Below the pieces are notes generated by a model. It was given only the letters and a program-made list of their open reading frames with translations. It was not told where the DNA came from and did not search any database. Of a stretch of 64,000 nucleotides of DNA, positions 4,590 to 59,385 are shown in pieces. The position numbers and the translations under genes were made by a program. The first letter of the stretch is position 1. Every line of letters starts with the position of its first letter. Source of the DNA: Antedon mediterranea (lineage: Eukaryota; Animalia; Echinodermata); the NCBI RefSeq assembly GCF_964355755.1, contig NC_092676.1, positions 29,939,499-30,003,498 of the forward strand. Reading direction: 5' to 3'.

Positions 4590-5370
4590 AACCGTAGCTT
4601 GTCCCACGTAGAATCTGAATCTATCCTCGGTAGAAACCGCCTGTCCCCTCCAAGTTTTGTGTAAATGGTCATAAGGAATTATATAGATTCTATATATATT
4701 GGTCGTATTGGTCGTATTCGCGGTAATCTTAACAAGAAAACAGCTGAATTGATTGTACACTCATTTGTCACTTCTAAAATTGACATTGGTAATGCCTTGT
4801 TGTTTGGCATACTAAAATCTCAAATACAACGTTTGCAGCGCTTGCAAAATATGGCAGCTAGAATTGTAACTTGTACAAAATCAAACGCTCACATAACTCC
4901 TGTCCTGATGGATTTGCATTGGTTGCCTGTTCAACAACGTATTAAGTACAAACTTGCGTTGTTTGTATTCAAGATCCTAAATGACAGTGCTCCTGCTTAT
5001 TTATCTGACCTTGTGGTTCGTTACGAATCATCCCGCAGAGGCCTACGATCATTGTCACAAAACCTTCTTCAAGAGCGTAGAGCGAAAAATCAGTGGGGTC
5101 AGAGATCTTTTTACGTTGCGGCCGCAAGTGTATGGAACAGCTTACCAGCAACAGTTAAATGCTCAACTAGTCTAAACAGTTTCAAGATCAACCTAAAGAC
5201 GTCGCTATTCGCTGATGTTCTCGCACATTGTTAATGCACAAAGCGCCATGAGCGCCACATGGGTGGATGATACCGGCGCTATATAAGTTTTCATTTATTA
5301 TTATTATATTATATTTTTATTAATGTTACTATTCGTCTGTGTAAATTGGCCTGACAGCTGCTCTTGATTC
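4590..5370 (+). mobile_element. 3' fragment of an L2/CR1-type LINE (RT C-terminal tail) inside PPIL4 intron 11
   Basis: ORF 4665-5234 encodes the characteristic LINE tail ...AARIVTCTKSNAHITPVLMDLHWLPVQQRIKYKLALFVFKILNDSAPAYLSDL...SFYVAAASVWNSLP...FKINLKTSLF. It shares 5' (ttgtcccacgtagaat..ctatcct) and 3' (gtgtaaatggtcataaggaat...ctgtgtaaattggcc) ends with the copy at 29700-30300. Confidence 0.75.
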
Positions 5371-8170: not shown

Positions 8171-8245
8171 TGTAGTGTACACCTTGCATTCTTTACTGTC
8201 TTTATGACAAAAAGCAATGACAAGGTACATAATGGCCACCCCACT

Positions 8246-8700
8246 GTTTACATTCTGAATGTAGCATTAAAATGCAAGTACAGCAACAAGCAATTGTTTA
8301 CATTCTGAATGTAGCATTAAAATGCAAGTACAGCAACAAGCAATTGTTTACATTCTGAATGTAGCATTAAAATGCAAGTACAGCAACAAGCAATTGTTTA
8401 CATTCTGAATGTAGCATTAAAATGCAAGTACAGCAACAAGCAATTGTTTACATTCTGAATGTAGCATTAAAATGCAAGTACAGCAACAAGCAATTGTTTA
8501 CATTCTGAATGTAGCATTAAAATGCAAGTACAGCAACAAGCAATTGTTTACATTCTGAATGTAGCATTAAAATGCAAGTACAGCAACAAGCAATTGTTTA
8601 CATTCTGAATGTAGCATTAAAATGCAAGTACAGCAACAAGCAATTGTTTACATTCTGAATGTAGCATTAAAATGCAAGTACAGCAACAAGCAATTGTTTA
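8246..8700. repeat. Tandem repeat, 50-bp unit x about 9 (caattgtttacattctgaatgtagcattaaaatgcaagtacagcaacaag) in UST intron 5
   Basis: Near-identical direct repeats visible in the sequence. Confidence 0.9.
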
Positions 8701-8718
8701 CGCCGTTTGTTTCATTAC

Positions 8719-8866: not shown

Positions 8867-9132
8867 CTATCGAAAAAAAGGGTTAAGAAAATTTAAATAA
8901 AATGTATTTGGATCTAGCGCCATAAGCAGATTCAGATTTGAATCAAATAACATTCAAACTTCTGTATCTTCCATTTGATATATTCCAATTTGTTTAACAA
9001 AACAGCATCATCTTTTATTCCCATCAAAAGGAACAAATGAAGTGAATGCAGCTTCAGCAAATTTTAAAAACACAAATTTCATTTACTTAGTTTACATTAA
9101 GTATTATTAATTGGCATTGGAAGAATACTTAC

Positions 9133-9212
9133 TTGGTAAAATCAATGTAATGCAAATGTCGCTGAAATAAGAATGGTGGGTCTACCTTCAAAAGAACACT
9201 CACAAGCAGATT
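9133..9212 (-). CDS. UST: UST exon 4 (NLLVSVLLKVDPPFLFQRHLHYIDFTK)
   Basis: Matches human ..QPYLFTRHVHFLNFSRFG; acceptor ttttag and donor gtaagt on the minus strand. Confidence 0.75.
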
Positions 9213-9557
9213 CTAAAAATAAATAAACAATTTCATTTTTGTCGGATGCCAGTGTGTATTATAATTTAACTTGTGGAAAAGTTTCATCGGATTTTAATAA
9301 AATATAAAAAGGGTTCAGCAACTCTTTGTTTCATTTTAATACCAATTTTGTTACCATTATCTAACAGGTAGACACTGAGCTTGCCTTGCCAAGATAGTAA
9401 AAGTCCTGTGATCTTATGTCTGGTCGCAACAAATACCAACAGTACTGTACATAATCTCTGCGGTGCACGGTGGCTGTTAAGGGGCTTGGCACTGATATCG
9501 CAGTCACATAAAGTTTGATAGTGTGGACAACAGGCGCGGATTTAGGCGGGGGCTAAA

Positions 9558-9838
9558 CAGGCTTCAGAATACAAACCTATTTAGCGCCCCCTAATGTCTA
9601 ACGCTGGATCTGCCCCTGGACAAGGCTTCAGAATACAAACCTATTTAGCGCCCCCTAATGTCTAACGCTGGATCTGTCCCTGGACAAGGCTTCAGAATAC
9701 AAACCTATTTAGCCCCCCTAATCTCTAACGCTGGATCTTCCCCTGGACAAGGCTTCAGAATACAAACCTATTTAGCCCCCCTAATCTCTAACGCTGGATC
9801 TGCCCCTGGACAAGGCTTCCGAATACAAACCTTCTTTT
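9558..9838. repeat. Tandem repeat, 63-bp unit x about 4.5 (caggcttcagaatacaaacctatttagcgccccctaatgtctaacgctggatctgcccctgga) in UST intron 3
   Basis: Direct repeats; the ORF-track ORF 9658-9864 is an artefact of the repeat. Confidence 0.9.
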
Positions 9839-9869
9839 CCTCTGATGTACGGGTTTGGTTATAAATAAC

Positions 9870-9974
9870 CGAGTTGATCATGTTGTATTTGTTAACCTTG
9901 GCTAAATGTTTGAAAACGTCCAACACTGACCGACTTCCACATTTACCAACACGATTAAAAATAATACGTTGAGC
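9870..9974 (-). CDS. UST: UST exon 3 (AQRIIFNRVGKCGSRSVLDVFKHLAKVNKYNMINS; 5'-PSB PAPS-binding motif)
   Basis: Matches human UST VVYNRVGKCGSRTVVLLLRILSEKHGFNLVTSD. Confidence 0.8.
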
Positions 9975-10664
9975 CTGAAAGGTGATAAAATATTAAGGAA
10001 TATGTTACAGTAAGTGTAGTGATGTTACATTACTTAATTCACTCAAACTTAGCAACTTTTGGTATTAATTATAGATAGTATAGAATCCAGTATAACCACA
10101 ATGTAAGTAGATAACTTAGTTTTCTATCTTGTTAATGATTTTACTTTTTGATTTAATAGAGTTGTTTTGATATTTGTGTTTCTGTTAATGTTTTATCTTT
10201 GTACGAGACAAGCACAATTATTTCCACTTGTTCTGTGCACGAAATAAATTGTAGAAATATCTGGTAGAACATTTGTTTTGTTGTCACAAGCACTTTACGT
10301 ATAACCCTTTCAAATCGTCTAGCAAAACATCTCAGGAGTTTACACACCATGGCCGCAACACTCTGGTATAATTATGCTAGATAGCATAATATTGACCCAT
10401 CTGCCATCTAGCATTTATGCTAGACATAATTTTAGAAAATCTGGCATAATTTTGTGCTGCCACCTAGCATAATTTAATTTCAAATGCTGGCCACACTGAT
10501 TACACCTGCATTTTGTATGGGGTGCACTCAGGTGTAAGTAAACTCCAGCGTTTCCCTAGGCATGTGACAGGGTATTTATTAGTTATAACATTATTTTATT
10601 CTAACTTTTTAAAAGTAAAACCAATAATTGAAAACAGATAACAATATCATAACAGCATCCTCAC

Positions 10665-10921
10665 CGTTGTATCTTCCCAGTTGCCATATAAGGGTAATTT
10701 TTCAACTCCTTCCTTAGTTTCGTTCCAGTCGTATAACCATTTCTTTTTTCCAACAATTACTTTATCTGGTTTACTTAGTATAGTGTTTACTGGTGGTTCA
10801 ACAACCTTTTTATTTTCATTTACAACGTTTCCAACTACTTCTGTTGACTTGTTTTGTGAAACTTTGTTAGTTTCTTCAAAAACATTCTTTCCTTCATCTT
10901 GAAAACCCATAATTTTTCGCT
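10665..10921 (-). CDS. UST: UST exon 2 (stem region ..KIMGFQDEGKNVFEETNKVSQNKSTEVVGNVVNENKKVVEPPVNTILSKPDKVIVGKKKWLYDWNETKEGVEKLPLYGNWEDTT)
   Basis: Open frame ending in strong donor gtgagg (plus-strand cctcac 10659-10664); phase-compatible with exons 1 and 3. Confidence 0.55.
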
Positions 10922-10990
10922 CTGAAAAAAAAATAATCTTCATTCGTTGAAAAATAAAATTCAGTAAATAGAGTACATTATTAGTAGATG

Positions 10991-11111
10991 GAGTGGAGTT
11001 GTAGCTTGGTGGTTATGATGCTTGGTTACCATTTCAAGGTCCTGGGTTCAAGTCCTGTCATGTGTCAGGATTTTTTATAATGACAAATTAAAACTCTACT
11101 TCCAAAGACTA
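10991..11111 (+). mobile_element. tRNA-derived SINE copy, 5' part, interrupted by the foldback insertion
   Basis: gagtggagttgtagcttggtgg...gggttcaagtcctgtc carries A-box and B-box like motifs; same family as 31071-31290. Confidence 0.7.
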
Positions 11112-12313
11112 CGAAAGCCCATTAATGCCATTTTAAGTATATGTTTTTCGAACGTAATCCGTTATAACGAATTAGTAATTCGTTTGAACGGATTAATAAT
11201 TCGTTTGAACGGATTAATAATCTGTTAATTACTAATTTGTTTAAACGGATTACTAATTTGTTCAAACGGATTACTAATCCGTTCAAACGAATTACTAATT
11301 TGTTTAAACGGATTACTAATTCGTTCAAACGAATTACTAATTTGTTTAAACGGATTACTAATTCGTTCAAACGAATTACTAATTTGTTTAAACGGATTAG
11401 TAATCCGTTCAAACGAATTACTAATTCATTCAAACGAATTAGTAATCCGTTTAAACGAATTAATAATTTGTTTAAACAAATTAATAATTTGTTTAAACGG
11501 ATTATTAATCTGTTTGAACAAATTAGTAATTCGTTTGAACGAATTAGTAATCCGTTTAAACAAATTATTAATTTGTTTAAACAAATTAATAATTTGTTCA
11601 AACGGATTACTAATTCGTTAGAACGAATTAGTAATTCGTTTGAACAAATTAGTAATCCGTTTAAACAAATTACTAATCCGTTTGTAACGGATTCCTAATT
11701 CGTTTTAACAGATTATTAATCTGTTTAAACAAATTAGTAATTCGTTTGAACAGATTAGTAATCCGTTCAAACGAATTACAACATATTCTTTAAATGGCAC
11801 TTGTTGTATATGTTGCAATTGGTTTGAACGGATTACTAATTCGTTTGAACAGATTACTAATCCGTTCAAACGAATTACTAATTCGTTCAAACAGATTAGT
11901 AATCCGTTTAAACAAATTATTAATTTGTTTAAACAAATTATTAATTTGTTTAAACGGATTACTAATTCGTTTGAACGAATTAGTAATCCGTTTAAACAAA
12001 TTAGTAATCCGTTTAAACAAATTAGTAATCCGTTTAAACAAATTAGTAATTCGTTTGAACGAATTAGTAATTCGTTTGAACAAATTAGTAATCCGTTTAA
12101 ACAAATTAGTAATTCGTTGGAACGGATTAGTAATCCGTTTAAACGAATTACAACATATACTTTAAATGGCACTTGTTGTATATGTTGCAATTCGTTTGAA
12201 CGGATTACTAATTCGTTTGAACAGATTATTAATCCGTTCAAACGAATTACTAATTCGTTATAACGGATTACGTTCGAAAAACATATACTTAAAATGGCAT
12301 TAATGGGCTTTCG
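11112..12313. mobile_element. Foldback-type DNA transposon: about 70-bp terminal inverted repeats (cgaaagcccattaatgccattttaagtatatgtttttcgaacgtaatccgttataacgaattagtaattcg) enclosing inverted arms of a 21-bp satellite (cgtttgaacggattaataatt family) plus small internal palindromes
   Basis: Left end 11112-11185 is the exact reverse complement of right end 12243-12313. The satellite reads FKRITN on the + strand in the left half and on the - strand in the right half. It is inserted into a SINE with a 6-7 bp target duplication (aaagac(t)). Confidence 0.8.
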
Positions 12314-12440
12314 TAAAAGACTTGTTATAAGACTTTGTTTATGTAGAGCATCTTATGTATATGTTTGTCTTGTGAACGGGATTGCTGCCTTTAAGGATAG
12401 TGAATGAATTCGCTTATGGTTATCCTTGGCAATTTGCCAA
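12314..12440 (+). mobile_element. tRNA-derived SINE copy, 3' part, after the foldback insertion
   Basis: aaagacttgtt...gtttatgtagagcatcttatgtatatgtttgtcttgtgaac...ggttatccttgg matches the 3' half of the solo SINE at 31190-31290. Confidence 0.7.
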
Positions 12441-12630
12441 AATATTCTTTACAATTGTCACCTCTACCATACAAATTATTTTTTGCTTTGTCGTCTTCAT
12501 GCTTCACTACACGCAACGAACCATCTATTTGATTGTTTGACCGACCCGGGTATACATTATTACATAACACAGTTATTTGCTCACAACAAAACCACGTTTT
12601 AAAGTTCCTGCTTAAATGTTATTTACTTAC

Positions 12631-12856
12631 CTTCTATATGTTTCCAATATTCCTTCCACTCTAGTTTCGGTTTTCTTGATGTAATCGGTTTTTTCTTAGG
12701 CCCAACTTTGTGTTTGCCGGCGATGGACAGTACTCCGCTTGCTGATGATGTACCTTCGCCATAAGATAAGCTCCCATTACTGCCAACATATACATAGCAG
12801 ATTATTAGAACACCAGTAATCAGAAATAAAGTTATCAATATTTTTTTGTTTGCCAT
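12631..12856 (-). CDS. UST: UST (uronyl 2-sulfotransferase) exon 1: type-II signal anchor MANKKILITLFLITGVLIICYVYVGSNGSL...EWKEYWKHIE
   Basis: ATG at 12856-12854 on the minus strand; N-terminal hydrophobic anchor typical of Golgi sulfotransferases; donor gtaagt (plus-strand acttac 12625-12630). Confidence 0.7.
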
Positions 12857-13854: not shown

Positions 13855-14775
13855 ATGAATGATTCAGTAGAAGAACAAGTAGACACAACGATGTTACTAG
13901 CGTCTAGATGGATTATATCCATAACTGGAATCGTCGCAAATTCTTTGGTCATCTTTGTATTTGTCTACAATAAATCATTTAAGAAGTCGCTTTCGTTAAA
14001 ATTACTTCTACATCAAACTGTGATTGATTTGATTGGATGTGTAATGTTTTTAATATTCTACAACTATGTTATTTATGCCGATAATGACAAGCCAACATTA
14101 TTATGCAAATTTCGTTCATTGTTTTGGTACATGACTGTGGCGTCTTCGTACAACTTGGTAGTCTTGACCGTCGAACGGTATATTGCTGTTATTCATCCGT
14201 TATTCTACCGAATGAAGTCATCAAGCGGGAATAAACTAATCATATACACTCTTCCTTTACTTATTCCACATATACCCGGTTTTCTGGCCGGAATTCGTAT
14301 ATTTGACATAATGGAGTATGATAACGGCGTATGCTATCTGAAAGATGAACACCCTATTTTTACAGGCGTTTATCAGCTTATCTTCAATGCACTTTTTCCT
14401 ATTAGCGTTATGTCCTATTGTTACGGCTGTATTCTGTGGAAGTTAAGCCAACGGTCTATAGTAGGAAGTTCTACTCCTCAACAGCCGGGCGCGCCAGGTT
14501 CCAACCTTAATGCGCATGCGCCGTGTTTTAAAACAAACCTGATATTAACACTCATGCAGTCGTCTGTCGTTTTTCTGGTAACAATCACGCCGAATTGTGT
14601 CTTTATTTTTGTGTATTGTCTGTGCACGTGTTTCGAGTATAACTCTGTTTTGCATAGAGTAACAGAATTATTAATAGCGTCTAATTTAACCATTAATCCG
14701 TTTATATATTGTATAACTTTAAAAGAATTTCAGCGCGGTATTTTGAAAATTAGAAATGCCGTCGTGAATTTGTAG
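13855..14775 (+). CDS. Intronless orphan rhodopsin-like (class A) GPCR, 306 aa
   Basis: Single 921-nt ORF with seven hydrophobic segments, E/DRY-type motif TVERYIAVIHP after TM3 and NPFIY in TM7. Confidence 0.75.
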   Translation: MNDSVEEQVDTTMLLASRWIISITGIVANSLVIFVFVYNKSFKKSLSLKLLLHQTVIDLIGCVMFLIFYNYVIYADNDKPTLLCKFRSLFWYMTVASSYNLVVLTVERYIAVIHPLFYRMKSSSGNKLIIYTLPLLIPHIPGFLAGIRIFDIMEYDNGVCYLKDEHPIFTGVYQLIFNALFPISVMSYCYGCILWKLSQRSIVGSSTPQQPGAPGSNLNAHAPCFKTNLILTLMQSSVVFLVTITPNCVFIFVYCLCTCFEYNSVLHRVTELLIASNLTINPFIYCITLKEFQRGILKIRNAVVNL

Positions 14776-17189: not shown

Positions 17190-18472
17190 CTCTCGGGACG
17201 CGATTTTTTTTTCCGTACGAGAGTTCCTCCATCGGTGAGTCGGGTTGGTGAACATCAGTCCAAAATACGCAGAATTTTTTCCAAAATACGTCAAGTTGAG
17301 GGCGCTATACTAATCCAAAATACGCGAGTCTTTCCAAAATACGTCAACTTGAGGGCGCTATTCATTTTCCAAAATACGCAAATTGTCCAAAATACGTCAA
17401 ATTGAGGGCGCTATTCATTTCCAAAATACGCGATTTGTCCAAAATACGTCAATTTGCAATTTGGGACCGCTAGTAATTTTCCAAAATACGTCAACTTGAG
17501 GGCGGCAAACTTTTTTCCAAAATACGAGAGCCTTTCCAAATGTATCATATTGAAAGTGTAAGGTAGAATTACAGTTTAATGTATTAAAAAAAAGTTTCTT
17601 AGAGTAAAAAACAAACAAGTACATTTTAGTTATAAATGAAAGTATTGGAAGGCAGAATTTTTTGTAAATAAAATGTCATAGAGTAGCCAATTATTATTTT
17701 TCAATGTAATCATTTATTACTGAATAAAAACAAATATGTGCCAACATCAGTCAATAGACAGTGCCTATAATATACATTAATAATGTCTGAACGATGTACG
17801 ATTGCATTGCCAGACGTAGCTAGTTTAAATGAGGCATAAACCGGCTACAAAAGCAGCATGTACGTATAGTATTTAAGCATAGTCATGGGCATGTGTTATA
17901 TATTTGGTGATCTACAAAATCGATATTTTTCCCGAGCTCGACAGACCAACATCGCTTTCAATTTAATGTACAGTACTTATGGTCAAATAAGTTACCTAAT
18001 CTGAAATCTAACATAATAGTTATTTCATATAATATATAATAATAATAAAAAGCATATGGTATTGTAATTAAAATAATATCAATAATTGGTTAGAAGAAGT
18101 AAAGTAATTATTTAAATCGCGTATTTTGGAAAATGAATAGCGCTCTCAAGTTGACGTATTTTGGAAAATTACAAGCGGTTCCAAATTGACGTATTTTGGA
18201 CAAATCGCGTATTTTGGAAAATGACTAGCGCCCTCAACTTTACGTATTTTGGACAATTCGCGTATTTTGGAAAATGAATAGCGCCCTCAAGTCGACGTAT
18301 TTTGGAAAGACTCGCGTATTTTGGATTAGTATAGCGCCCTCAACTTTACGTATTTTGGAAAAAATTCTGCGTATTTTGGACTGAATTTCACCAACCCTAT
18401 TGCCATCGGTTCGTTTCGGACTCAATCGACTCTCTTCGGTATTCGGTAAAGTCAGCTCACTGATGCGTGACA
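17190..18472. mobile_element. Foldback-type element: two inverted arms of a 45-bp satellite (ccaaaatacgtcaacttgagggcgctattcattttccaaaatacgc) at 17245-17560 (+) and 18117-18390 (-) around a 550-bp spacer, inserted into a copy of an A-B repeat with target duplication ccatcgg(t)
   Basis: The host sequence A-ccatcgg-B is intact, inverted, at 19840-19945. Here A (17190-17245) and B (18392-18472) are separated by the element, flanked by ccatcgg on both sides; element ends are gagtcgggttggtgaa / ttcaccaaccctattg. Confidence 0.7.
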
Positions 18473-23134: not shown

Positions 23135-23983
23135 ATGGCCAACGTGGAAAACAAAGAGCCAAATATTTCTAATTTAAATATTAGCGCCGCTGAACCGAAC
23201 ACCTGGCTGTCGACTCTCATCAAGTCAATCATGGGCTGCAAAACCATTGCTGATATTAAATCTACATTATGCGACGCAGTCACCAAGATTGTCTCCTTGG
23301 AAAAAGACATTACCATCCTCAATCTTGAAATCACCGGTTTACAAAAAGAACTGAGGAATTTGCACGCCGATATGCAGGAAAATTCTGATTTCATGGATGT
23401 TAAGCTGAAGGATATTGCCGAGGATACGCAGCAATCCACTACGGAATGCATAGAAGAGATACGCGACAAAATCGACAACCTAGAAGGACGTCAACGCCGT
23501 AACAATCTGAGGTTTACTGGCATGCCCGAACAAGCGGAGGATAGTGAAGGTACTGTTAATTTCCTTTCCTCATTTATTTCCAATACCACCGGCATCAAAA
23601 TCGCTAATGATGATATACAACGAGCCCATCGAGTTGGACCACGTAATACCACCAGGGATAAACCGAGACCACTTGTTGCATACTTTCTCAGATATTCCAC
23701 TAAAGAAAGAGTACGCAAGGCAGCTCCAAAAGTGAGACCTAAATTTAAAGATAATAACATCTACGTAAATAATGATTTTACCAGCAGAGTGATAAGTAGA
23801 AGAAAGGCATTATACTCATCGATGAAATACCTGCATTCCAACAAAGTAAAGGCCTGGCTCCACCTTGACAAATTGCGTTACATAGATGCAAATGGTTATG
23901 TTCGCACATTCATCGACATGGATCATCTTGCCAAATACTACCCGTACCTCAAGGAAGCACATGCCCCCGTAGCTACTGAGTAA
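23135..23983 (+). CDS. LINE ORF1p (coiled-coil + RRM + CTD, Transposase_22-like)
   Basis: ..LQKELRNLHADMQE..EGRQRRNNLRFTGMPEQAEDSEGTVNFLSSFI..IQRAHRVGPRN..KPRPLVAYFLRYSTKERVRKAAPK..NNIYVNNDFTSRVISRRKAL matches L1/Tx1-type ORF1 motifs. Confidence 0.8.
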   Translation: MANVENKEPNISNLNISAAEPNTWLSTLIKSIMGCKTIADIKSTLCDAVTKIVSLEKDITILNLEITGLQKELRNLHADMQENSDFMDVKLKDIAEDTQQSTTECIEEIRDKIDNLEGRQRRNNLRFTGMPEQAEDSEGTVNFLSSFISNTTGIKIANDDIQRAHRVGPRNTTRDKPRPLVAYFLRYSTKERVRKAAPKVRPKFKDNNIYVNNDFTSRVISRRKALYSSMKYLHSNKVKAWLHLDKLRYIDANGYVRTFIDMDHLAKYYPYLKEAHAPVATE

Positions 23984-24167
23984 TTCTAGTCGTCGCAATA
24001 ATTTAACTTTACTTTGACTCTACTTACCGTCAACCGAAATATTACCTATAATATATTTTTATTTCAAGAATTGTTTATTTTGCTTCTCATTAATTATGTA
24101 TTAATGTATACAGTCTCATGCATGCTTATTGCTGTATTTCTTTTTTAGATAACGCTATACGCAGCTA

Positions 24168-26786
24168 TTGTTAATGAATGTTAATTATCTTCACTTACTT
24201 CCTTTTTATGACTTTAATGTGAACTCTGAACTTACTAACAACAATGATATTTCTAACATAACCTTTAATCCAGTTAATTACAATGAAAATGACAAATATG
24301 ATGAATCTTTTGATCAACTAATTAATAACCTCAATTCACAGTCAGTTACCCTAGATGAATGCAGCTTTTATGATTATTCACAATTTAATTCTAAGTTTAA
24401 TACATCCTTTAATACTAAACTATCTCTCCTGCATCTTAATATTAGAAGTATTACGCATAAAGTTAATGATCTCGAATGCCTTTTGAATTCAATTAATAAC
24501 AAATTTTCCATAATCGGTATCAGTGAAACATGGCTTAATGAAAACTCCCCTATTCCTTTCATTAATAACTACTCCTTCTTTGCAAGCAATAGAAGCAATA
24601 ATCAAATTGGCGGAGGAGTTGCATTTTTTATACGTAATGATATTAGCATTACAATTCGAAATGACTTAAAATTACCAGACGACCTTTCCGAATCACTTTT
24701 TGTTGAGATTGAAAATTCAAAGACAAAAAATGATATTATAGGCATTATTTACAGAGCCCCCTGTGGAGGGCTAGATTCTTTTACTAAATCCGTCGATAAT
24801 GTATTAACCCAAATTAACAATGAAAACAAAAATTGTCATCTCATGGGAGACTTCAATATTGATTTATTAAAATTCCATAACCATAAATTAACAAACACCT
24901 ACCTAAATACCTTAATTTCCCATTCTTTTTTTCCAACTATTTCAAAACCAACTAGGATTACCTCAACTTCGGCCACCTTGATTGATCATTTTTATTCCAA
25001 ACAATCTAACTATAAAATAGTTGCTGGTGTTTTACTTAATGATATCTCCGACCACCTTCCTATATTTCAGTTCATTGATCAAGAAATTAATGATCAAAAC
25101 CTTGATGATAATAGCGCCAACTATTCATTTCGTATAAACGACCTAAATGCCTTATCGATTGATTTAGAAGGTGAAGACTGGTCTATGATATTTGATTGTG
25201 ACCCAAGATTGAGTTTTGATATATTTATTGAAAAATTTACAAATATCCACTCCAGACACTTGGTTAAAAGTAGTATAAAATCAAATAAAACGTTTAAACA
25301 ACCATGGATGTCATCTGCTCTCTTAAAATGTAGTTCTCGGAAACATAAACTTTATAACAAATATATGCACACACGTAGTAATAATGACAAATTAAACTAT
25401 ACAAAATATAATAATATTTTCACTAATCTTTGTCGCACTGCTAAAAAGAATTATTATACTTCCCAGTTTGATAGATATAAAGGTAATCTGAAGAACACAT
25501 GGCTTGTAATAAATTCTGTTTTAAATAAAGGTAATAATAATAACAAGCACCCGAATCTAATTAAAGACGGTGATAATATTTACAAAACTCAAAAAGAGAT
25601 ATGTGAATCGTTTAACAACTATTTTTCTACAATTGGTCCTAATCTTATTAATAGTATGCCAACTAATATAACTGATCCATTATCTTATCTTCATTCTGCG
25701 TTTGCCAACTCATTTTATATTAGCCCAGTTTCAATTGATGATGTTAACCTAACTATATACAATCTAAATTCTAATAAAGGGTCTGGATCTGACGGTATTA
25801 CTGCTCGTGTCTTAAAATCTGTATCTCCCTTAATCATCCACCAACTTACCCATTGTATAAATTCATCTTTTTTATCTGGCACTTTTCCAACACACTTAAA
25901 ACTAGCTAAAGTTGTGCCCATTTTCAAGAAAGGTGAACGAAGTCAATTATCTAATTACCGGCCAATATCACTACTTTCAGTGTTTTCCAAAATTATTGAA
26001 AAACTCATGTATTCTAAACTTTCTGATTATCTCACAAAATTTGATATACTTAATAAACGCCAATATGGTTTTCGAAAAAATCACTCTACATCCCATGCCG
26101 TTTTAGATCTTATTAATAATATTACAAATTCATTTGAATCAAAAGAAAATTTATTAAGTTTATTTATTGATCTTTCAAAGGCCTTCGATGTTATTAATCA
26201 CGATAATTTAATTAAAAAACTTGAGTGCTATGGAATTAGAGGTATTTCATTGAATTGGTTTAATAGTTATTTGAAAGATAGAAAACAATATGTTGCATTA
26301 GGATCTTGTACATCGTCGACGATGGATATTACTTGCGGAGTGCCACAGGGATCTGTGCTTGGGCCATTGCTCTTCCTTATTTATGTTAATGATCTGGCTA
26401 ATGTCAGTAACAAATTGCAAGTAATATCCTTCGCCGACGACACCACCTTATTTTACTCTAATTCCAATATTGATTTATTATTTACTACATTCAATGATGA
26501 ATTAACAAAATTTTGTGACTGGTTTATTTCAAACAAATTACTTATTAATACTCTTAAAACAAATTATTTAATTTTTCACAATTCTCAACGTAAACTAAAA
26601 GTTGATGACCTAAATATACTTCTTGGCGGAATTCAAATTGAACGCAAAACTGAAACACTTTTTTTAGGTGTATATATTCATGAAAACCTCAAATGGACCA
26701 GTCATCAAAATTACGTTTCGAAAAAAATATCAAGATCTATTAGTATTATTAACAGACTTAAGCACTTCTTCCCTCTAATATTTTAA
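24168..26786 (+). CDS. LINE ORF2p: apurinic-like endonuclease + reverse transcriptase, 872 aa to the frameshift
   Basis: EN motifs LNIRSI..IIGISETWL..GGGVAFFIRND..GDFNID; RT motifs FRKNHSTSHAVLDL..LFIDLSKAFDVINHD..GVPQGSVLGPLLFLIYVNDL..FADDTTLF. Confidence 0.85.
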   Translation: MLMNVNYLHLLPFYDFNVNSELTNNNDISNITFNPVNYNENDKYDESFDQLINNLNSQSVTLDECSFYDYSQFNSKFNTSFNTKLSLLHLNIRSITHKVNDLECLLNSINNKFSIIGISETWLNENSPIPFINNYSFFASNRSNNQIGGGVAFFIRNDISITIRNDLKLPDDLSESLFVEIENSKTKNDIIGIIYRAPCGGLDSFTKSVDNVLTQINNENKNCHLMGDFNIDLLKFHNHKLTNTYLNTLISHSFFPTISKPTRITSTSATLIDHFYSKQSNYKIVAGVLLNDISDHLPIFQFIDQEINDQNLDDNSANYSFRINDLNALSIDLEGEDWSMIFDCDPRLSFDIFIEKFTNIHSRHLVKSSIKSNKTFKQPWMSSALLKCSSRKHKLYNKYMHTRSNNDKLNYTKYNNIFTNLCRTAKKNYYTSQFDRYKGNLKNTWLVINSVLNKGNNNNKHPNLIKDGDNIYKTQKEICESFNNYFSTIGPNLINSMPTNITDPLSYLHSAFANSFYISPVSIDDVNLTIYNLNSNKGSGSDGITARVLKSVSPLIIHQLTHCINSSFLSGTFPTHLKLAKVVPIFKKGERSQLSNYRPISLLSVFSKIIEKLMYSKLSDYLTKFDILNKRQYGFRKNHSTSHAVLDLINNITNSFESKENLLSLFIDLSKAFDVINHDNLIKKLECYGIRGISLNWFNSYLKDRKQYVALGSCTSSTMDITCGVPQGSVLGPLLFLIYVNDLANVSNKLQVISFADDTTLFYSNSNIDLLFTTFNDELTKFCDWFISNKLLINTLKTNYLIFHNSQRKLKVDDLNILLGGIQIERKTETLFLGVYIHENLKWTSHQNYVSKKISRSISIINRLKHFFPLIF

Positions 26787-29699: not shown

Positions 29700-30300
29700 A
29701 AATTGTCAATTTAAACCACATAGCTTGTCCCACGTAGAATATGTATCTATCCTGAGCGATAACCACATAGCTTGTCCCACGTAGAATATGTATCTATCCT
29801 GAGCAATAACCACATAGCTTTTCCCACGTAGAATATGTATCTATCCTGAGCAATAACCACATAGCTTGTCCCACGTAGAATATGTATCTATCCTGAGCAA
29901 TAACCACATAGCTTGTCCCACGTAGAATATGTATCTATCCTGAGCGATAACCACATAGCTTGTCCCACGTAGAATATGTATCTATCCTGAGCAAAAACCA
30001 CATAGCTTGTCCCACGTAGAATATGTATCTATCCTGAGCAATAACCACATAGCTTGTCCCACGTAGAATATGTATCTATCCTGAGCAATAACCACATAGC
30101 TTGTCCCACATAGAATATGTATCTATCCTGAGCGATAACCACATAGCTTGTCCCACGTAGAATATGTATCTATCCTGAGTGAAAACCACCCATCCGCTTC
30201 GTGTTGTGTGTAAATGGTCATAAGGAATAACATAGATTCTAATTTTTATTACCGTTACCGCTTGTCTGTGTAAATTGGCCTTTAGTCTTTCTTTCTTTTT
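29700..30300 (+). mobile_element. Internally deleted relative of the 4590-5370 LINE fragment, carrying a 47-bp tandem array x about 10 (ccacatagcttgtcccacgtagaatatgtatctatcctgagcaataa) at 29700-30180
   Basis: Shares the 5' motif ttgtcccacgtagaat..ctatcct and the 3' motif gtgtaaatggtcataaggaat..ctgtgtaaattggcc with the copy in PPIL4 intron 11. Confidence 0.7.
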
Positions 30301-31070: not shown

Positions 31071-31290
31071 GAGTGGAGTTGTGGCTTGGTGATTTAGATG
31101 CTTGGCTACCAATCCAAGGATCATGGGTTGAAGTCCAGTCATGTCAGAATTTCTTCTAATGACAAATTACAACTCCACTCTCCCAAAGACTTGTTTATGT
31201 AGAGCATCTTGTTTATATGTTTGTATTGTGAACAAGATTGCCACCTTTAAAAAGGATAGTGAATAACTTCGCTTATGGTTATCCTTGGAA
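31071..31290 (+). mobile_element. Solo tRNA-derived SINE copy in PARP4 intron 7
   Basis: gagtggagttgtggcttggtgatttagatgcttggctaccaatccaaggatcatgggttgaagtccagtc (tRNA-like head) + ..ccaaagacttgtttatgtagagc..ggttatccttgg tail. Confidence 0.75.
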
Positions 31291-31385
31291 ATATATAAAC
31301 AAAACAAAAACAATTTCAAAATGAACCAGCATGGAGCACCATCTAATGATCTATGCAAAGCATCAACATTTTGACTCTCTTTTAG

Positions 31386-36439: not shown

Positions 36440-36905
36440 ACTCCGGTGTATTCACACTGATGATAGTATACTTAAGCTGCTGAAGTCACCATTCACACTG
36501 ATGCTAGTATACTTAAGCTGCTGAAGTCACCATTCACACTGATGCTAGTATACTTAAGCTGCTGAAGTCACCATTCACACTGATGCTAGTATACTTAAGC
36601 TGCTGAAGTCACCATTCACACTGATGCTAGTATACTTAAGCTGCTGAAGTCACCATTCACACTGATGCTAGTATACTTAAGCTGCTGAAGTCACCATTCA
36701 CACTGATGCTAGTATACTTAAGCTGCTGAAGTCACCATTCACACTGATGCTAGTATACTTAAGCTGCTGAAGTCACCATTCACACTGATGATAGTATACT
36801 TAAGCTGCTGAAGTCACCATTCACACTGATGGTAGTATACTTAAGCTGCTGAAGTCACCATTCACACTGATGATAGTATACTTAAGCTGCTGAAGTCACC
36901 ATTCA
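36440..36905. repeat. Tandem repeat, 41-bp unit x about 11 (cattcacactgatgctagtatacttaagctgctgaagtcac) in PARP4 intron 18
   Basis: Direct repeats. Confidence 0.9.
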
Positions 36906-37190
36906 CACTTAGGCTGAACAAAAATACCCTTAAAATAAAAAAATCTATTTAGATGAATATAATTTTAAGGGAAAAATTTGAATATTTATTGAGTTAGTGA
37001 AATTTATTATATAATTTAAAGAAAATATCTCACTTAAGTGTGATTGGTGAATATGCGGGCACTGACCCTTCAATCAATGTTTTTGATAGGTTCAATTTAA
37101 TTTAATTTTGGATTATTCGGTCATTGTTTAATACAGAACTATTATGAACATTTGTTCTTTCAATGTTACCATTATTATTTCATTTTCTAG

Positions 37191-38378: not shown

Positions 38379-38478
38379 CGCAACAGCCAACAAACATTTG
38401 TTAAAATCCATTGCTCGTGTGGGAACAGGAGCTTTTGAGTTTTTTGATACAAGTTTAAAGTCAAGATGGGCAAAAAAG
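38379..38478 (+). CDS. PARP4: PARP4 exon 21 (SATANKHLLKSIARVGTGAFEFFDTSLKSRWAKK)
   Basis: Aligns with human GSTANRHVLRILSQCGAGVFEYFNAKSKHSWRKQ. Confidence 0.8.
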
Positions 38479-38815
38479 GTTAGATAAACATTTTATATGT
38501 TGTTTATTATATCATTATGTTATGTAATTGTCATTTAACTCCAATTAATTATCTTTAAAGGTTAGTTAAACATTTTATATGTTATTTATTATATCATTAT
38601 GTTATGTAATTGTCATTTAACTCCAATTAATTATCTTTAAAGGTTAGATAAACATTTGATATGTTGTTTATTATATCATTATGTTATGTAATTGTCATTT
38701 AACTCCAATTAATTATCTTTAAAGGTTAGATAAACATTTTATATGTTGTTTATTATATCATTATGTTATGTAATTGTCATTTAACTCCAATTAATTATCT
38801 TTAAATGCCAAAATT
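38479..38815. repeat. Tandem repeat, 82-bp unit x 4, in PARP4 intron 21
   Basis: gttagataaacattttatatgttgtttattatatcattatgttatgtaattgtcatttaactccaattaattatctttaaag repeated. Every unit recreates the donor context aaag|gttag. Confidence 0.85.
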
Positions 38816-47918: not shown

Positions 47919-47969
47919 ATATGAAGAGTGATGATGAACTTGATTTTGATTTACTGTCTTACTATCAGA
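47919..47969 (+). CDS. PARP4: PARP4 C-terminal exon (DMKSDDELDFDLLSYYQ)
   Basis: Phase 1 in; donor gtaagt at 47970, which is the first unit of the 41-bp tandem array. Confidence 0.45.
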
Positions 47970-48410
47970 GTAAGTAAATACTTTGGTTTAGTACTGTCTT
48001 ACTATCAGAGTAAGTAAATACTTTGGTTTAGTACTGTCTTACTATCAGAGTAAGTAAATACTTTAGTACTGTCTTACTATCAGAGTAAGTAAATACTTTG
48101 GTTTAGTACTGTCTTACTATCAGAGTAAGTAAATACTTTAGTACTGTCTTACTATCAGAGTAAGTAAATACTTTGGTTTAGTACTGTCTTACTATCAGAG
48201 TAAGTAAATACTTTAGTACTGTCTTACTATCAGAGTAAGTAAATACTTTAGTTTAGTACTGTCTTACTATCCGAGTAAGTAAATACTTTGGTTTAGTACT
48301 GTCTTACTATCAGAGTAAGTAGATACTTTGGTTTAGTACTGTCTTACTATCAGAGTAAGTAAATACTTTAGTACTGTCTTACTATCAGAGTAAGTAAATA
48401 CTTTTTTTTA
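47950..48410. repeat. Tandem repeat, 41-bp unit x about 11 (gtactgtcttactatcagagtaagtaaatactttggtttag) spanning a PARP4 exon-intron junction
   Basis: Each unit contains the last 14 nt of the exon plus the gtaagt donor. Confidence 0.9.
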
Positions 48411-48879: not shown

Positions 48880-50105
48880 AAAAGAGTTTTAAGTACTGTA
48901 CTGTATACTCAATTTGTACTGTATACTCAATCTGTACTGTATACTCAATTTGTACTGTACACTCAATCTGTACTGTATACTCAATTTGTACTGTATACGC
49001 AATTTGTACTGTATACTCAATTTGTACTGTATACTCAATGTGTACTGTATACTCAATTTGTACTGTATACTCAATTTGTACTGTATACTCAATTTGTACT
49101 GTATACTCAATCTGTACTGTATACTCAATCTGTACTGTATACTCAATTTGTACTGTATACTCAATTTGTACTGTATACTCAATCTGTACTGTAGTACTCA
49201 ATTTGTACTGTATACTCAATTTGTACTGTATACTCAATCTGTACTGTATACTCAATTTGTACTGTATACTCAATCTGTACTGTAGTACTCAATCTGTACT
49301 GTAGTACTCAATTTGTACTGTATACTCAATTTGTACTGTATACTCAATTTGTACTGTATACTCAATTTGTACTGTATACTCAATCTCTACTGTATACTCA
49401 ATTTGTACTGTATACTCAATTTGTACTGTAGTACTCAATTTGTACTGTATACTCAATTTGTACTGTATACTCAATCTGTACTGTAGTACTCAATTTGTAC
49501 TGTAGTACTCAATTTGTACTGTATACTCAATTTGTACTGTATATTCAATCTGTACTGTATACTCAATTTGTACTGTATACTCAATTTGTACTGTAGTACT
49601 CAATTTGTACTGTATACTCAATCTGTACTGTAGTACTCAATCTGTACTGTATACTCAATTTGTACTGTATACTCAATCTGTACTGTAGTACTCAATTTGT
49701 ACTGTAGTACTCAATTTGTACTGTATACTCAATCTGTACTGTATACTCAATTTGTACTGTATACTCAATTTGTGCTGTATACTCAATTTGTACTGTATAC
49801 TCAATCTGTACTGTATACTCAATCTGTACTGTATACTCAATCTGTACTGTAGTACTCAATTTGTACTGTAGTACTCAATTTGTACTGTATACTCAATCTG
49901 TACTGTATACTCAATTTGTGCTGTATACTCAATTTGTGCTGTATACTCAATTTGTACTGTATACTCAATTTGTACTGTAGTACTCAATTTGTACTGTATA
50001 CTCAATTTGTACTGTACACTCAATCTGTACTGTATACTCAATTTTTACTGTAGTACTCAATTTGTACTGTATACTCAATTTGTACTATATACTCACATTT
50101 TTTTA
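48880..50105. repeat. Satellite, 18-bp unit (actcaatttgtactgtat and variants ctg/gta) x about 68, 1.2 kb, in a PARP4 intron
   Basis: Direct repeats; the ORF-track ORFs 48878-50041 on both strands are artefacts. Confidence 0.95.
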
Positions 50106-59071: not shown

Positions 59072-59270
59072 GTATGTGTAAGATTTTGTGTATCAAATAT
59101 GAATCATATTATTTGTTTTGTTTATACAGTGTATTTAGGCAAACTGCCAATGATAACCATAAAGTGAGATCATTCCACTATCTTTCTTAAAGTTGGAAAT
59201 CCTGTTCACTAGACAAACATATACACAAGATGCTTTACATACTGTAAACACAGACTTATTACAAGTCTTT

Positions 59271-59385
59271 GGGAGTGGAGTTGTAATTTGTCATTAGAAA
59301 AAATCTTGGCACTGACAGCATTTAAACACCAGAACCTTAGATTGGTAGCCAAGCATCATAACGACTCTACATTTGTTAAAAAAAT
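59271..59385 (-). mobile_element. Fragment of the tRNA-derived SINE in minus orientation in a UBE3A intron
   Basis: gggagtggagttgtaatttgtcattagaa..ccttagattggtagccaagcatc is the reverse complement of the SINE body. Confidence 0.65.

Follow-up and report, generated by a model that had tools for sequence, protein, structure and literature searches.

A target site duplication (TSD) of 6 bp is uncommon among DNA transposons. Together with ends reading TA..TA it forms the signature of the IS3EU/GingerRoot superfamily, described in 2019 (PMC6839031) and by Kojima and Bao (2023; PMC10045372), in which the TSD is occasionally 7-8 bp. TA..TA ends were found in 72 of 77 GingerRoot elements, with TSDs of mostly 6 bp and terminal inverted repeats (TIRs) of 100-150 bp (PMC6839031). 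Foldback elements such as FB of Drosophila and Tm1 of Meloidogyne have inverted arms composed of tandem repeats, can form a long hairpin and occur mostly as copies without an open reading frame (ORF); their TSD is 9 bp, their terminal motifs are different and their transposase is Mutator-like (PMC3169594). The Galileo/Tetris-type elements of Drosophila (P superfamily or related) have long, internally repetitive TIRs and are able to seed satellite DNA (PMC3573991; PMC4079207); Galileo has a 7-bp TSD and a P-type transposase (PMC3573991). In the present study a stretch of 64,000 nucleotides (64 kb, "the window") from contig NC_092676.1 of the crinoid Antedon mediterranea was analyzed, which harbours at positions 11110-12315 an element of 1206 bp that resembles FB and Tm1 in its arms and IS3EU/GingerRoot in its TA..TA ends, its 6-bp TSD and a terminal motif common to elements encoding rva_4/rve-like DDE transposases. 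It is probably a non-autonomous cut-and-paste transposon that belongs to the IS3EU/GingerRoot superfamily, was inserted recently and owes its foldback shape to the loss of all but its two long inverted arms. The superfamily and the foldback architecture are each already known, and their combination was not found described in the literature (Repbase being outside the scope); a few satellite or dispersed tandem-repeat families of oysters and beetles have been noted in passing, in other papers, as resembling IS3EU entries. The element is rated as a structurally new variant or family within a known superfamily rather than a new kind of system.

The ends of the element read 5'-TACG...CGTA-3' (TACGAAAG...CTTTCGTA), showing the TA...TA of IS3EU/GingerRoot. 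Computational extension of these ends revealed that 11110-11200 (plus strand) and 12225-12315 (minus strand) are exact reverse complements, with 0 mismatches over 91 bp; the left TIR consists of ~45 bp of unique sequence followed by the first two units of a 21-bp repeat. The TIRs proposed in the initial annotation (11112-11185 and 12243-12313) are real and longer than was stated, the proposed ranges lying inside the true 91-bp repeat and being of unequal length. Beyond the perfect TIRs an imperfect inverted symmetry continues along arms of ~590 bp, which agrees with IS3EU/GingerRoot TIRs of about 100 bp or more. AAAGAC stands directly outside both TIRs (11104-11109 and 12316-12321), a TSD of 6 bp as in this superfamily. 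All ORFs of the element follow the period of its arrays, and no IS3EU transposase was detected in the 64-kb window by tblastn with 15 IS3EU/GingerRoot transposase cores. The view of the element as an ORF-less DNA transposon flanked by a TSD was thus borne out.

The insertion lies within an older repeat that resembles a short interspersed nuclear element (SINE). The 5' half of this host repeat (10991-11109, plus strand) is 83% identical to 31071-31190 and 59365-59265, and its 3' half (12316-12445, plus strand) is 81-87% identical to 31186-31292 and 59270-59132. Both other copies, at 31071-31292 (plus strand) and 59132-59365 (minus strand), are uninterrupted and served as empty-site references. 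The host repeat, ~230-330 bp long and present in the window as three dispersed copies of 81-87% identity, is an interspersed repeat, and the alignment of the flanks of the element to the two uninterrupted copies upholds the nesting that had been proposed. The tRNA derivation proposed for it was not confirmed: ARAGORN detected no tRNA in the window and Rfam gave no tRNA match at E <= 1 for either host-repeat head; a box-A-like sequence (TAGCTTGGTGG) and a box-B-like sequence (GGTTCAAGTCC) were recognised by eye only, and the insertion point falls in the non-tRNA-like part of the repeat. The target of the insertion was ..CCCAAAGAC|TTGT... Alignment showed that the empty-site sequence ..CCCAAAGACTTGT.. 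is unbroken in both uninterrupted copies, with one copy of AAAGAC at the empty site and two around the element, so that the empty site can be reconstructed from the window as had been foreseen. The duplication had been given as 6-7 bp; it is real, and the comparison of filled and empty sites gives 6 bp, since the TA..TA ends are symmetric and the ambiguity came from the T that follows the duplication. The element is a precise insertion of mobile DNA, demonstrated inside the window. The outer 91 bp of its arms are identical while the copies of the host repeat diverge by 13-19%, which indicates that the insertion is much younger than the repeat.

Three features made the assignment to a superfamily possible: the 6-bp TSD, ends of the TA..TA type and a terminal motif of 22 nt. 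The motif is represented in the element by TACGAAAGCCCATTAATGCCAT at 11110-11131 (plus strand) and at 12294-12315 in the right TIR. The pattern TACG....C........G.CAT, with nine specified bases, was derived from the present comparisons, which covered loci fetched from sequence collections (labelled L001-L019). The 64-kb window has two matches to it, one at either end of the element, against a chance expectation of 0.09; none of the shuffled sequences attains two. Among 12 aligned termini of six families the invariant positions are T1, A2, C3, G4, C9, G18, C20, A21 and T22. In the same register, the pattern was found at both ends of ORF-less elements in JGI contigs, at the ends of arrays in ENA contigs and upstream of transposase genes in L012, L013 and L014. 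It also stands at both ends of the complete autonomous element L017 and at the left end of L019, of which the right end reads TATG. The IS3EU/GingerRoot hallmark of a terminal sequence common to transposase-encoding members is therefore present. Over 34 positions (ungapped, TACG fixed) the window terminus is identical to that of L014 at 20 (shuffle p = 0.0009) and to that of L012 at 19 (shuffle p = 0.006). L017 and L019 were both fetched after the motif had been defined, and its recovery at both ends of the former and in relaxed form in the latter is an independent confirmation.

The autonomous elements were reached via the 15 transposase cores, which were taken from the supplement of PMC10045372, aligned and used to search protein collections. 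This search gave 3822 matches carrying Pfam PF24764, and the DNA around eight of these was fetched; tblastn with the same cores had found none in the first nine loci. L017 is a complete element of 3879 bp (8927-12805 of its contig). Both its ends read TACGGTGGCC(G/T)GTAAGGGCCAT (TACGGTGGCCGGTAAGGGCCAT), it is flanked by CCCCGGG|...|CCCCGGG, and a PF24764 transposase is encoded between inverted arms of 616 bp and 83% identity. Each arm consists of a unique terminus of ~48 bp followed by ~27 copies of the 21-bp unit GAATCGCGACTTCAAAGTGGA. A second complete element enclosing a PF24764 gene, L019 (9365-17893), has TIRs of 137 bp (95%), the ends TACGGTGCTTTAGAAGGGACAT and TATGGTGGTTTAGAAGGGACAT (TATGG...GGGACAT) and the flanks CTATTA and CAATTA. 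With only 2-3 short subterminal repeats, it demonstrates that an element of this kind can do without long arrays. In the one-ended loci L014 and L012/L013 the terminal motif is followed by an array with a period of 20-22 bp and then by the transposase gene; the period is 20 bp in L014, and the array of L012/L013 is palindromic with a period of 22 bp. A period of 20-22 bp directly inside the terminus is found in four IS3EU families. L012 and L013 are 99% identical over 13.5 kb, from which they appear to be haplotigs or a segmental duplication. At 9382-9963 of these loci (ENA ERZ25072999) the perfect 22-bp palindrome TTATCTTGCCCGGGCAAGATAA is arrayed directly upstream of the IS3EU transposase gene.

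Compared with these elements and with the published ones, the window element has no transposase. Its arms of ~590 bp consist almost entirely of a palindromic 21-bp unit, in contrast to the published GingerRoot TIRs of 100-150 bp, for which tandem repeats are not mentioned (PMC6839031). Its host is a crinoid, whereas the word 'Echinoderm' appears nowhere in the main text of that paper (PMC6839031).

ORF-less relatives were found outside Antedon. The exact 23-nt terminus had no match in public metagenome or prokaryote-genome contigs. A degenerate pattern of two units matched six metagenome contigs and had no match among genome or viral contigs. Four of the loci (L001-L004, from JGI) contain ORF-less elements of ~290 bp at unrelated positions, with ends reading TACGGAGCCCCGCAGAGGACATGCG... 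(TACGGAGCCCCGCAGAGGACAT) and an interior of ~9 units of 20/21 bp (AATTTGTTCAAACAAATT) whose direction reverses at the centre; in L004 a duplication, CTCTTT, is present on both flanks. An array ORF used as a protein query retrieved mostly unrelated periodic peptides, and only P0002, P0005 and P0007 gave real relatives (L007-L009), which are three contigs of one ENA assembly. Their arrays of TAATTCGTTTGAACGAATTA, up to ~650 bp in L009 and >700 bp in L007 (80 or more units), terminate in ...AATGTCACCTTAGGGGCTCCGTA (..GGGGCTCCGTA) and adjoin two different, unrelated flanks. The ENA unit matches the consensus of the window unit at 19 of 20 positions, and among the three ORF-less families (window, JGI and ENA) 17-19 of 20 positions of the unit consensus match, compared with only ~47-49% of the first 34-45 terminal nucleotides between the window and JGI families. 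In L007 (9700-13954) and L009 (1-1607; ENA ERZ25070167) the 21-bp palindromic unit alternates with a G-rich satellite of ~130 bp, and the sub-arrays are edged by short inverted GCATGCAACAACTATTTC sequences; a single IS3EU-type terminus closes the block, and no left end was found in the DNA fetched. A short array of a related unit, TAATCCGTTCGAACGAATTA, was observed in L006 (263-433; JACSEG010036310.1), where neither side has a recognisable IS3EU terminus.

The interior of the window element consists of about 49 copies of the 21-bp unit, of which 43-44 have recognisable centres when anchored on GTTYRAAC. The consensus consists of a perfect 20-bp palindrome, TAATTCGTTTAAACGAATTA, and one spacer base, and individual units are symmetric at 12-20 of 20 positions. 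Tandem Repeats Finder (TRF) delimits three arrays: 11154-11778 (~30 units, left arm and centre), 11817-12151 (16 units) and 12189-12271 (4 units, leading into the right TIR), in agreement with the ~1 kb of 21-bp tandem repeat reported initially. Between them lie two modules of 38 nt on the plus strand, ACAACATATTCTTTAAATGGCACTTGTTGTATATGTTG at 11778-11815 and its counterpart at 12150-12187, which are 97% identical to each other. Both contain a copy of TIR bases 17-36, oriented as in the right end. Two copies of a small hairpin had been noted here; the copies exist, and their predicted folds are weak, at -4.0 kcal/mol (z = -0.8) and -6.5 kcal/mol (z = -2.5). Mirror partners of the modules are lacking in the left arm, where only a 15-bp irregularity at ~11218-11235 stands opposite module 2.

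The palindromic unit has consequences for how the array is read. It yields equal periodic peptides on both strands throughout, in both halves: ORFs of the FKRITN type occur at 11237-11698 and 11925-12263 on the plus strand and at 11426-11584 and 11790-12104 on the minus strand. The assignment of such ORFs to the plus strand in the left half and the minus strand in the right half can therefore not be maintained, and instead of four spurious array ORFs there are at least 8 of at least 45 aa. Likewise, a single flip of orientation midway was an over-reading of the palindromic unit, as the marks of orientation, CA or TG at the centre and C or G in the spacer, switch several times along the element. 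An inverted-repeat search, which had been suggested as a check, revealed long-range mirror symmetry about an axis at ~11702, about 10 bp off the geometric centre. The segment 11817-12150 is 91.6% complementary to its best inverted partner, 11254-11587, while competing registers reach at most 87.4% (inverted) and 86.2% (direct). Despite its palindromic units the element is a true large palindrome, and folding prediction shows its single-stranded DNA as one long hairpin (-497 kcal/mol). At relaxed thresholds Rfam returned ~160 matches in 11150-12270, mostly to microRNA (miRNA) precursor families (MIR4380, MIR4227 and others). All scores were far under the gathering threshold, and a miRNA identity of the array was rejected, these being generic matches of AT-rich hairpins.

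For the IS3EU/GingerRoot reading the following mechanism can be envisaged. A DDE integrase-like transposase (Pfam rva_4), encoded in another part of the genome by an autonomous relative, would recognise the terminal motif, cut at the TA ends and integrate with a stagger of 6 bp. The ~49 palindromic units of 20 bp may act as accessory binding sites for dimers of the N-terminal DNA-binding region of the transposase; their 21-bp spacing corresponds to two helical turns, which would place every site on one face of the helix. Such a role is suggested by the higher conservation of the unit (17-19/20) than of the rest of the TIR (~47-49%), as functional sites would predict, and by the recurrence of the 20-22-bp period directly inside the terminus of four IS3EU families. 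The element may have originated when an L017-like autonomous element lost its coding middle and its two arms were joined, after which slippage and unequal exchange would have altered the number of units and conversion within the element would have kept the outer 91 bp identical. More generally, it is tentatively proposed, at somewhat less than even probability, that a clade within IS3EU/GingerRoot, autonomous and non-autonomous elements alike, builds its arms from arrayed 20-22-bp, often palindromic, putative transposase-binding units inside a conserved 22-nt terminus, that these units are better conserved across hosts than the remaining TIR, and that IS3EU is an overlooked source of foldback elements and of seeds of short-period satellites in marine invertebrates.

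Several points weigh against this picture. Neither a transposase nor a second copy of the family is present in the 64-kb window, and a partner of the IS3EU type in the host species is presumed to mobilise the element in trans. The terminal motif was defined post hoc, from data already seen. Unit sequences differ between autonomous families, and binding of the units by the transposase is putative. The paper on GingerRoot does not mention tandem (or subterminal) repeats in TIRs (PMC6839031). Some of the fetched loci are incomplete: in L012/L013 and L014 no right end to match the left one was found within 10 kb, L010, L011 and L018 have no recognisable ends, and L015/L016 have subterminal repeats of ~20 bp and no recognisable terminus. 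The JGI element L001 lacks matching flanks, as do recombinant Galileo copies (PMC3573991).

Among the alternatives, the one to be taken most seriously retains the IS3EU assignment and regards the 21-bp arrays as neutral products of slippage or unequal exchange, a satellite seed, with only the outer ~45 bp being recognised by the transposase. The number of units indeed varies widely (~9 in the JGI elements, ~49 in the window and at least 80 in L007), the autonomous element L019 has a TIR of 137 bp with no more than 2-3 short subterminal repeats, and the units of autonomous families are unlike in sequence. Arguing against neutrality are a palindrome retained at 17-19 of 20 positions by three ORF-less families in which the termini now agree at only ~50%, a 20-22-bp period at the same place in four independent families, and a dyad symmetry and two-turn spacing of the kind that a dimeric DNA-binding protein would select. 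Neutral arrays are considered possible, yet clearly less probable than not. An origin without any mobile element, by local expansion of a satellite or by formation of a palindrome in place within the repeat, could appeal to the many other tandem arrays in the window. It is contradicted by the sharp boundaries with a direct 6-bp target duplication, by relatives with the same terminal motif that adjoin unrelated flanks in other samples and by the target that is intact in two paralogous copies; the comparison with the empty sites refutes it, and it is given virtually no credence.

The architecture of the element, with long inverted tandem-repeat arms, little or no middle and no ORF, is that of the classic Foldback lineage, either the Mutator-related Drosophila FB and nematode Tm1 or the Galileo type of the P superfamily, and mobilisation by a transposase of that kind has to be considered. 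Echinoderms are known to possess foldback elements, the TU elements of sea urchins. The long tandem-repeat inverted arms of FB/Tm1 are indeed present, but the TSD of 6 bp differs from the 9 bp (8-10 bp) of FB and Tm1 (PMC3169594) and from the 7 bp of Galileo (PMC3573991), the TA..TA termini carry a motif common to PF24764-encoding elements, and in none of the fetched loci was a Mutator or P transposase linked to this motif. This descent is thus very improbable, and the label Foldback-like of the initial annotation is apt for the architecture and not for membership of the FB family. An equally slight chance is given to a miniature derivative of another superfamily with a TSD of ~6 bp, such as Polinton/Maverick, Ginger2/TDD, Dada or an atypical hAT. 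TSDs of 6 bp have been reported for Polinton and Ginger2 (PMC6839031) and of 6-7 bp for Dada (PMC3706591). However, Polinton ends read AG..TC and Ginger ends TG..CA (PMC6839031), and Dada elements have no TIRs and target specific small-RNA genes (PMC3706591), whereas the window element has a perfect 91-bp TIR and inserted into a SINE-like repeat. Moreover, the terminal motif was found bounding rva_4 genes. Elements of the hAT superfamily have an 8-bp TSD and YARNG ends, to which TACGA does not conform. Membership of hAT, Dada, Polinton, Ginger, P and Mutator was rejected on the basis of TSD length and termini. Tandem-repeat MITEs (miniature inverted-repeat transposable elements) of marine invertebrates, such as pearl in oysters and DTC84 in the clam Donax, are likewise short and non-autonomous, have an array core between TIRs and are common in introns. 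They differ in that their core is a direct repeat between short TIRs, without a palindromic unit that forms arms, and most have not been assigned to a superfamily.

The repeat and the element are located in an intron (10922-12630, minus strand; GT donor 12630-12629, AG acceptor 10923-10922) of a gene predicted by homology to belong to the UST/HS2ST family of 2-O-sulfotransferases. The upstream exon, which contains the ATG and encodes MANKKILITLFL..., a signal-anchor-like N-terminus, ends at 12631 and is followed by GTAAGT; a pyrimidine tract and CAG precede the next exon, which begins at 10921, and the junction preserves the reading frame. The placement in the first intron of such a gene, made in the initial annotation, is thereby supported. 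Without the element and the extra TSD copy the intron would measure ~497 bp. The joined downstream exons match Pfam Sulfotransfer_2 (PF03567, E = 1.2e-9), and their closest solved relative in the PDB is heparan sulfate 2-O-sulfotransferase 1 (HS2ST1; E = 1e-31). The GKCGSR motif of the gene presumably agrees with UST.

The window holds other repetitive and coding features. A second foldback-like structure, at 17240-18400, consists of 53-bp tandem repeats with the motif TCCAAAATACG (17259-17456) and their reverse complement (18155-18380). Its outer inverted match (17242-17278 and 18361-18397, 95%) extends outward in similarity (GGGTTGGTGAA and TTCACCAACCC), and the IS3EU terminal motif is absent from it. 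Six tandem arrays have periods of 18-82 bp, of which those at 8245-8701, 29714-30179, 36450-36909 and 38475-38805 are near-perfect (97-100% matches) and those at 47952-48404 and 48897-50100 show 90-94% matches. No inverted repeats flank any of the six within 700 bp, and they may be internal arrays of other non-autonomous elements, for example Helitron-type carriers. An intact, intronless ORF of 306 aa at 13855-14775 (plus strand) encodes a rhodopsin-type G protein-coupled receptor (GPCR); in the crinoids Anneissia japonica and Antedon mediterranea its closest relatives, at 44-47% identity, make up an expanded family. Two ORFs at 23135-26786 (plus strand) were judged by eye, from their translations, to be of non-LTR (long terminal repeat) retrotransposon type, one ORF1-like (282 aa) and one endonuclease/reverse-transcriptase-like (872 aa); a separate fragment of 189 aa at 4665-5234 (plus strand) was judged by eye to resemble a reverse-transcriptase C-terminus.

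The finding concerns chiefly transposon specialists and genome annotators. Foldback-shaped, ORF-less elements usually stay unclassified, as they contain nothing protein-coding. In the window, the element accounts for a cluster of spurious periodic ORFs, and the Rfam matches illustrate that palindromic transposon arrays can mimic miRNA hairpins. The insertion has placed a potential hairpin of ~550 bp in a sulfotransferase pre-mRNA. As satellite-built arms are also present in the complete, transposase-encoding L017, the architecture suggests a trait of the lineage rather than a chance result of decay. Should the 21-bp units prove to be binding sites, the element would offer a substrate on which the assembly of an integrase-like eukaryotic transposase at its ends could be studied, and a concrete path from a transposon arm to a dispersed satellite.

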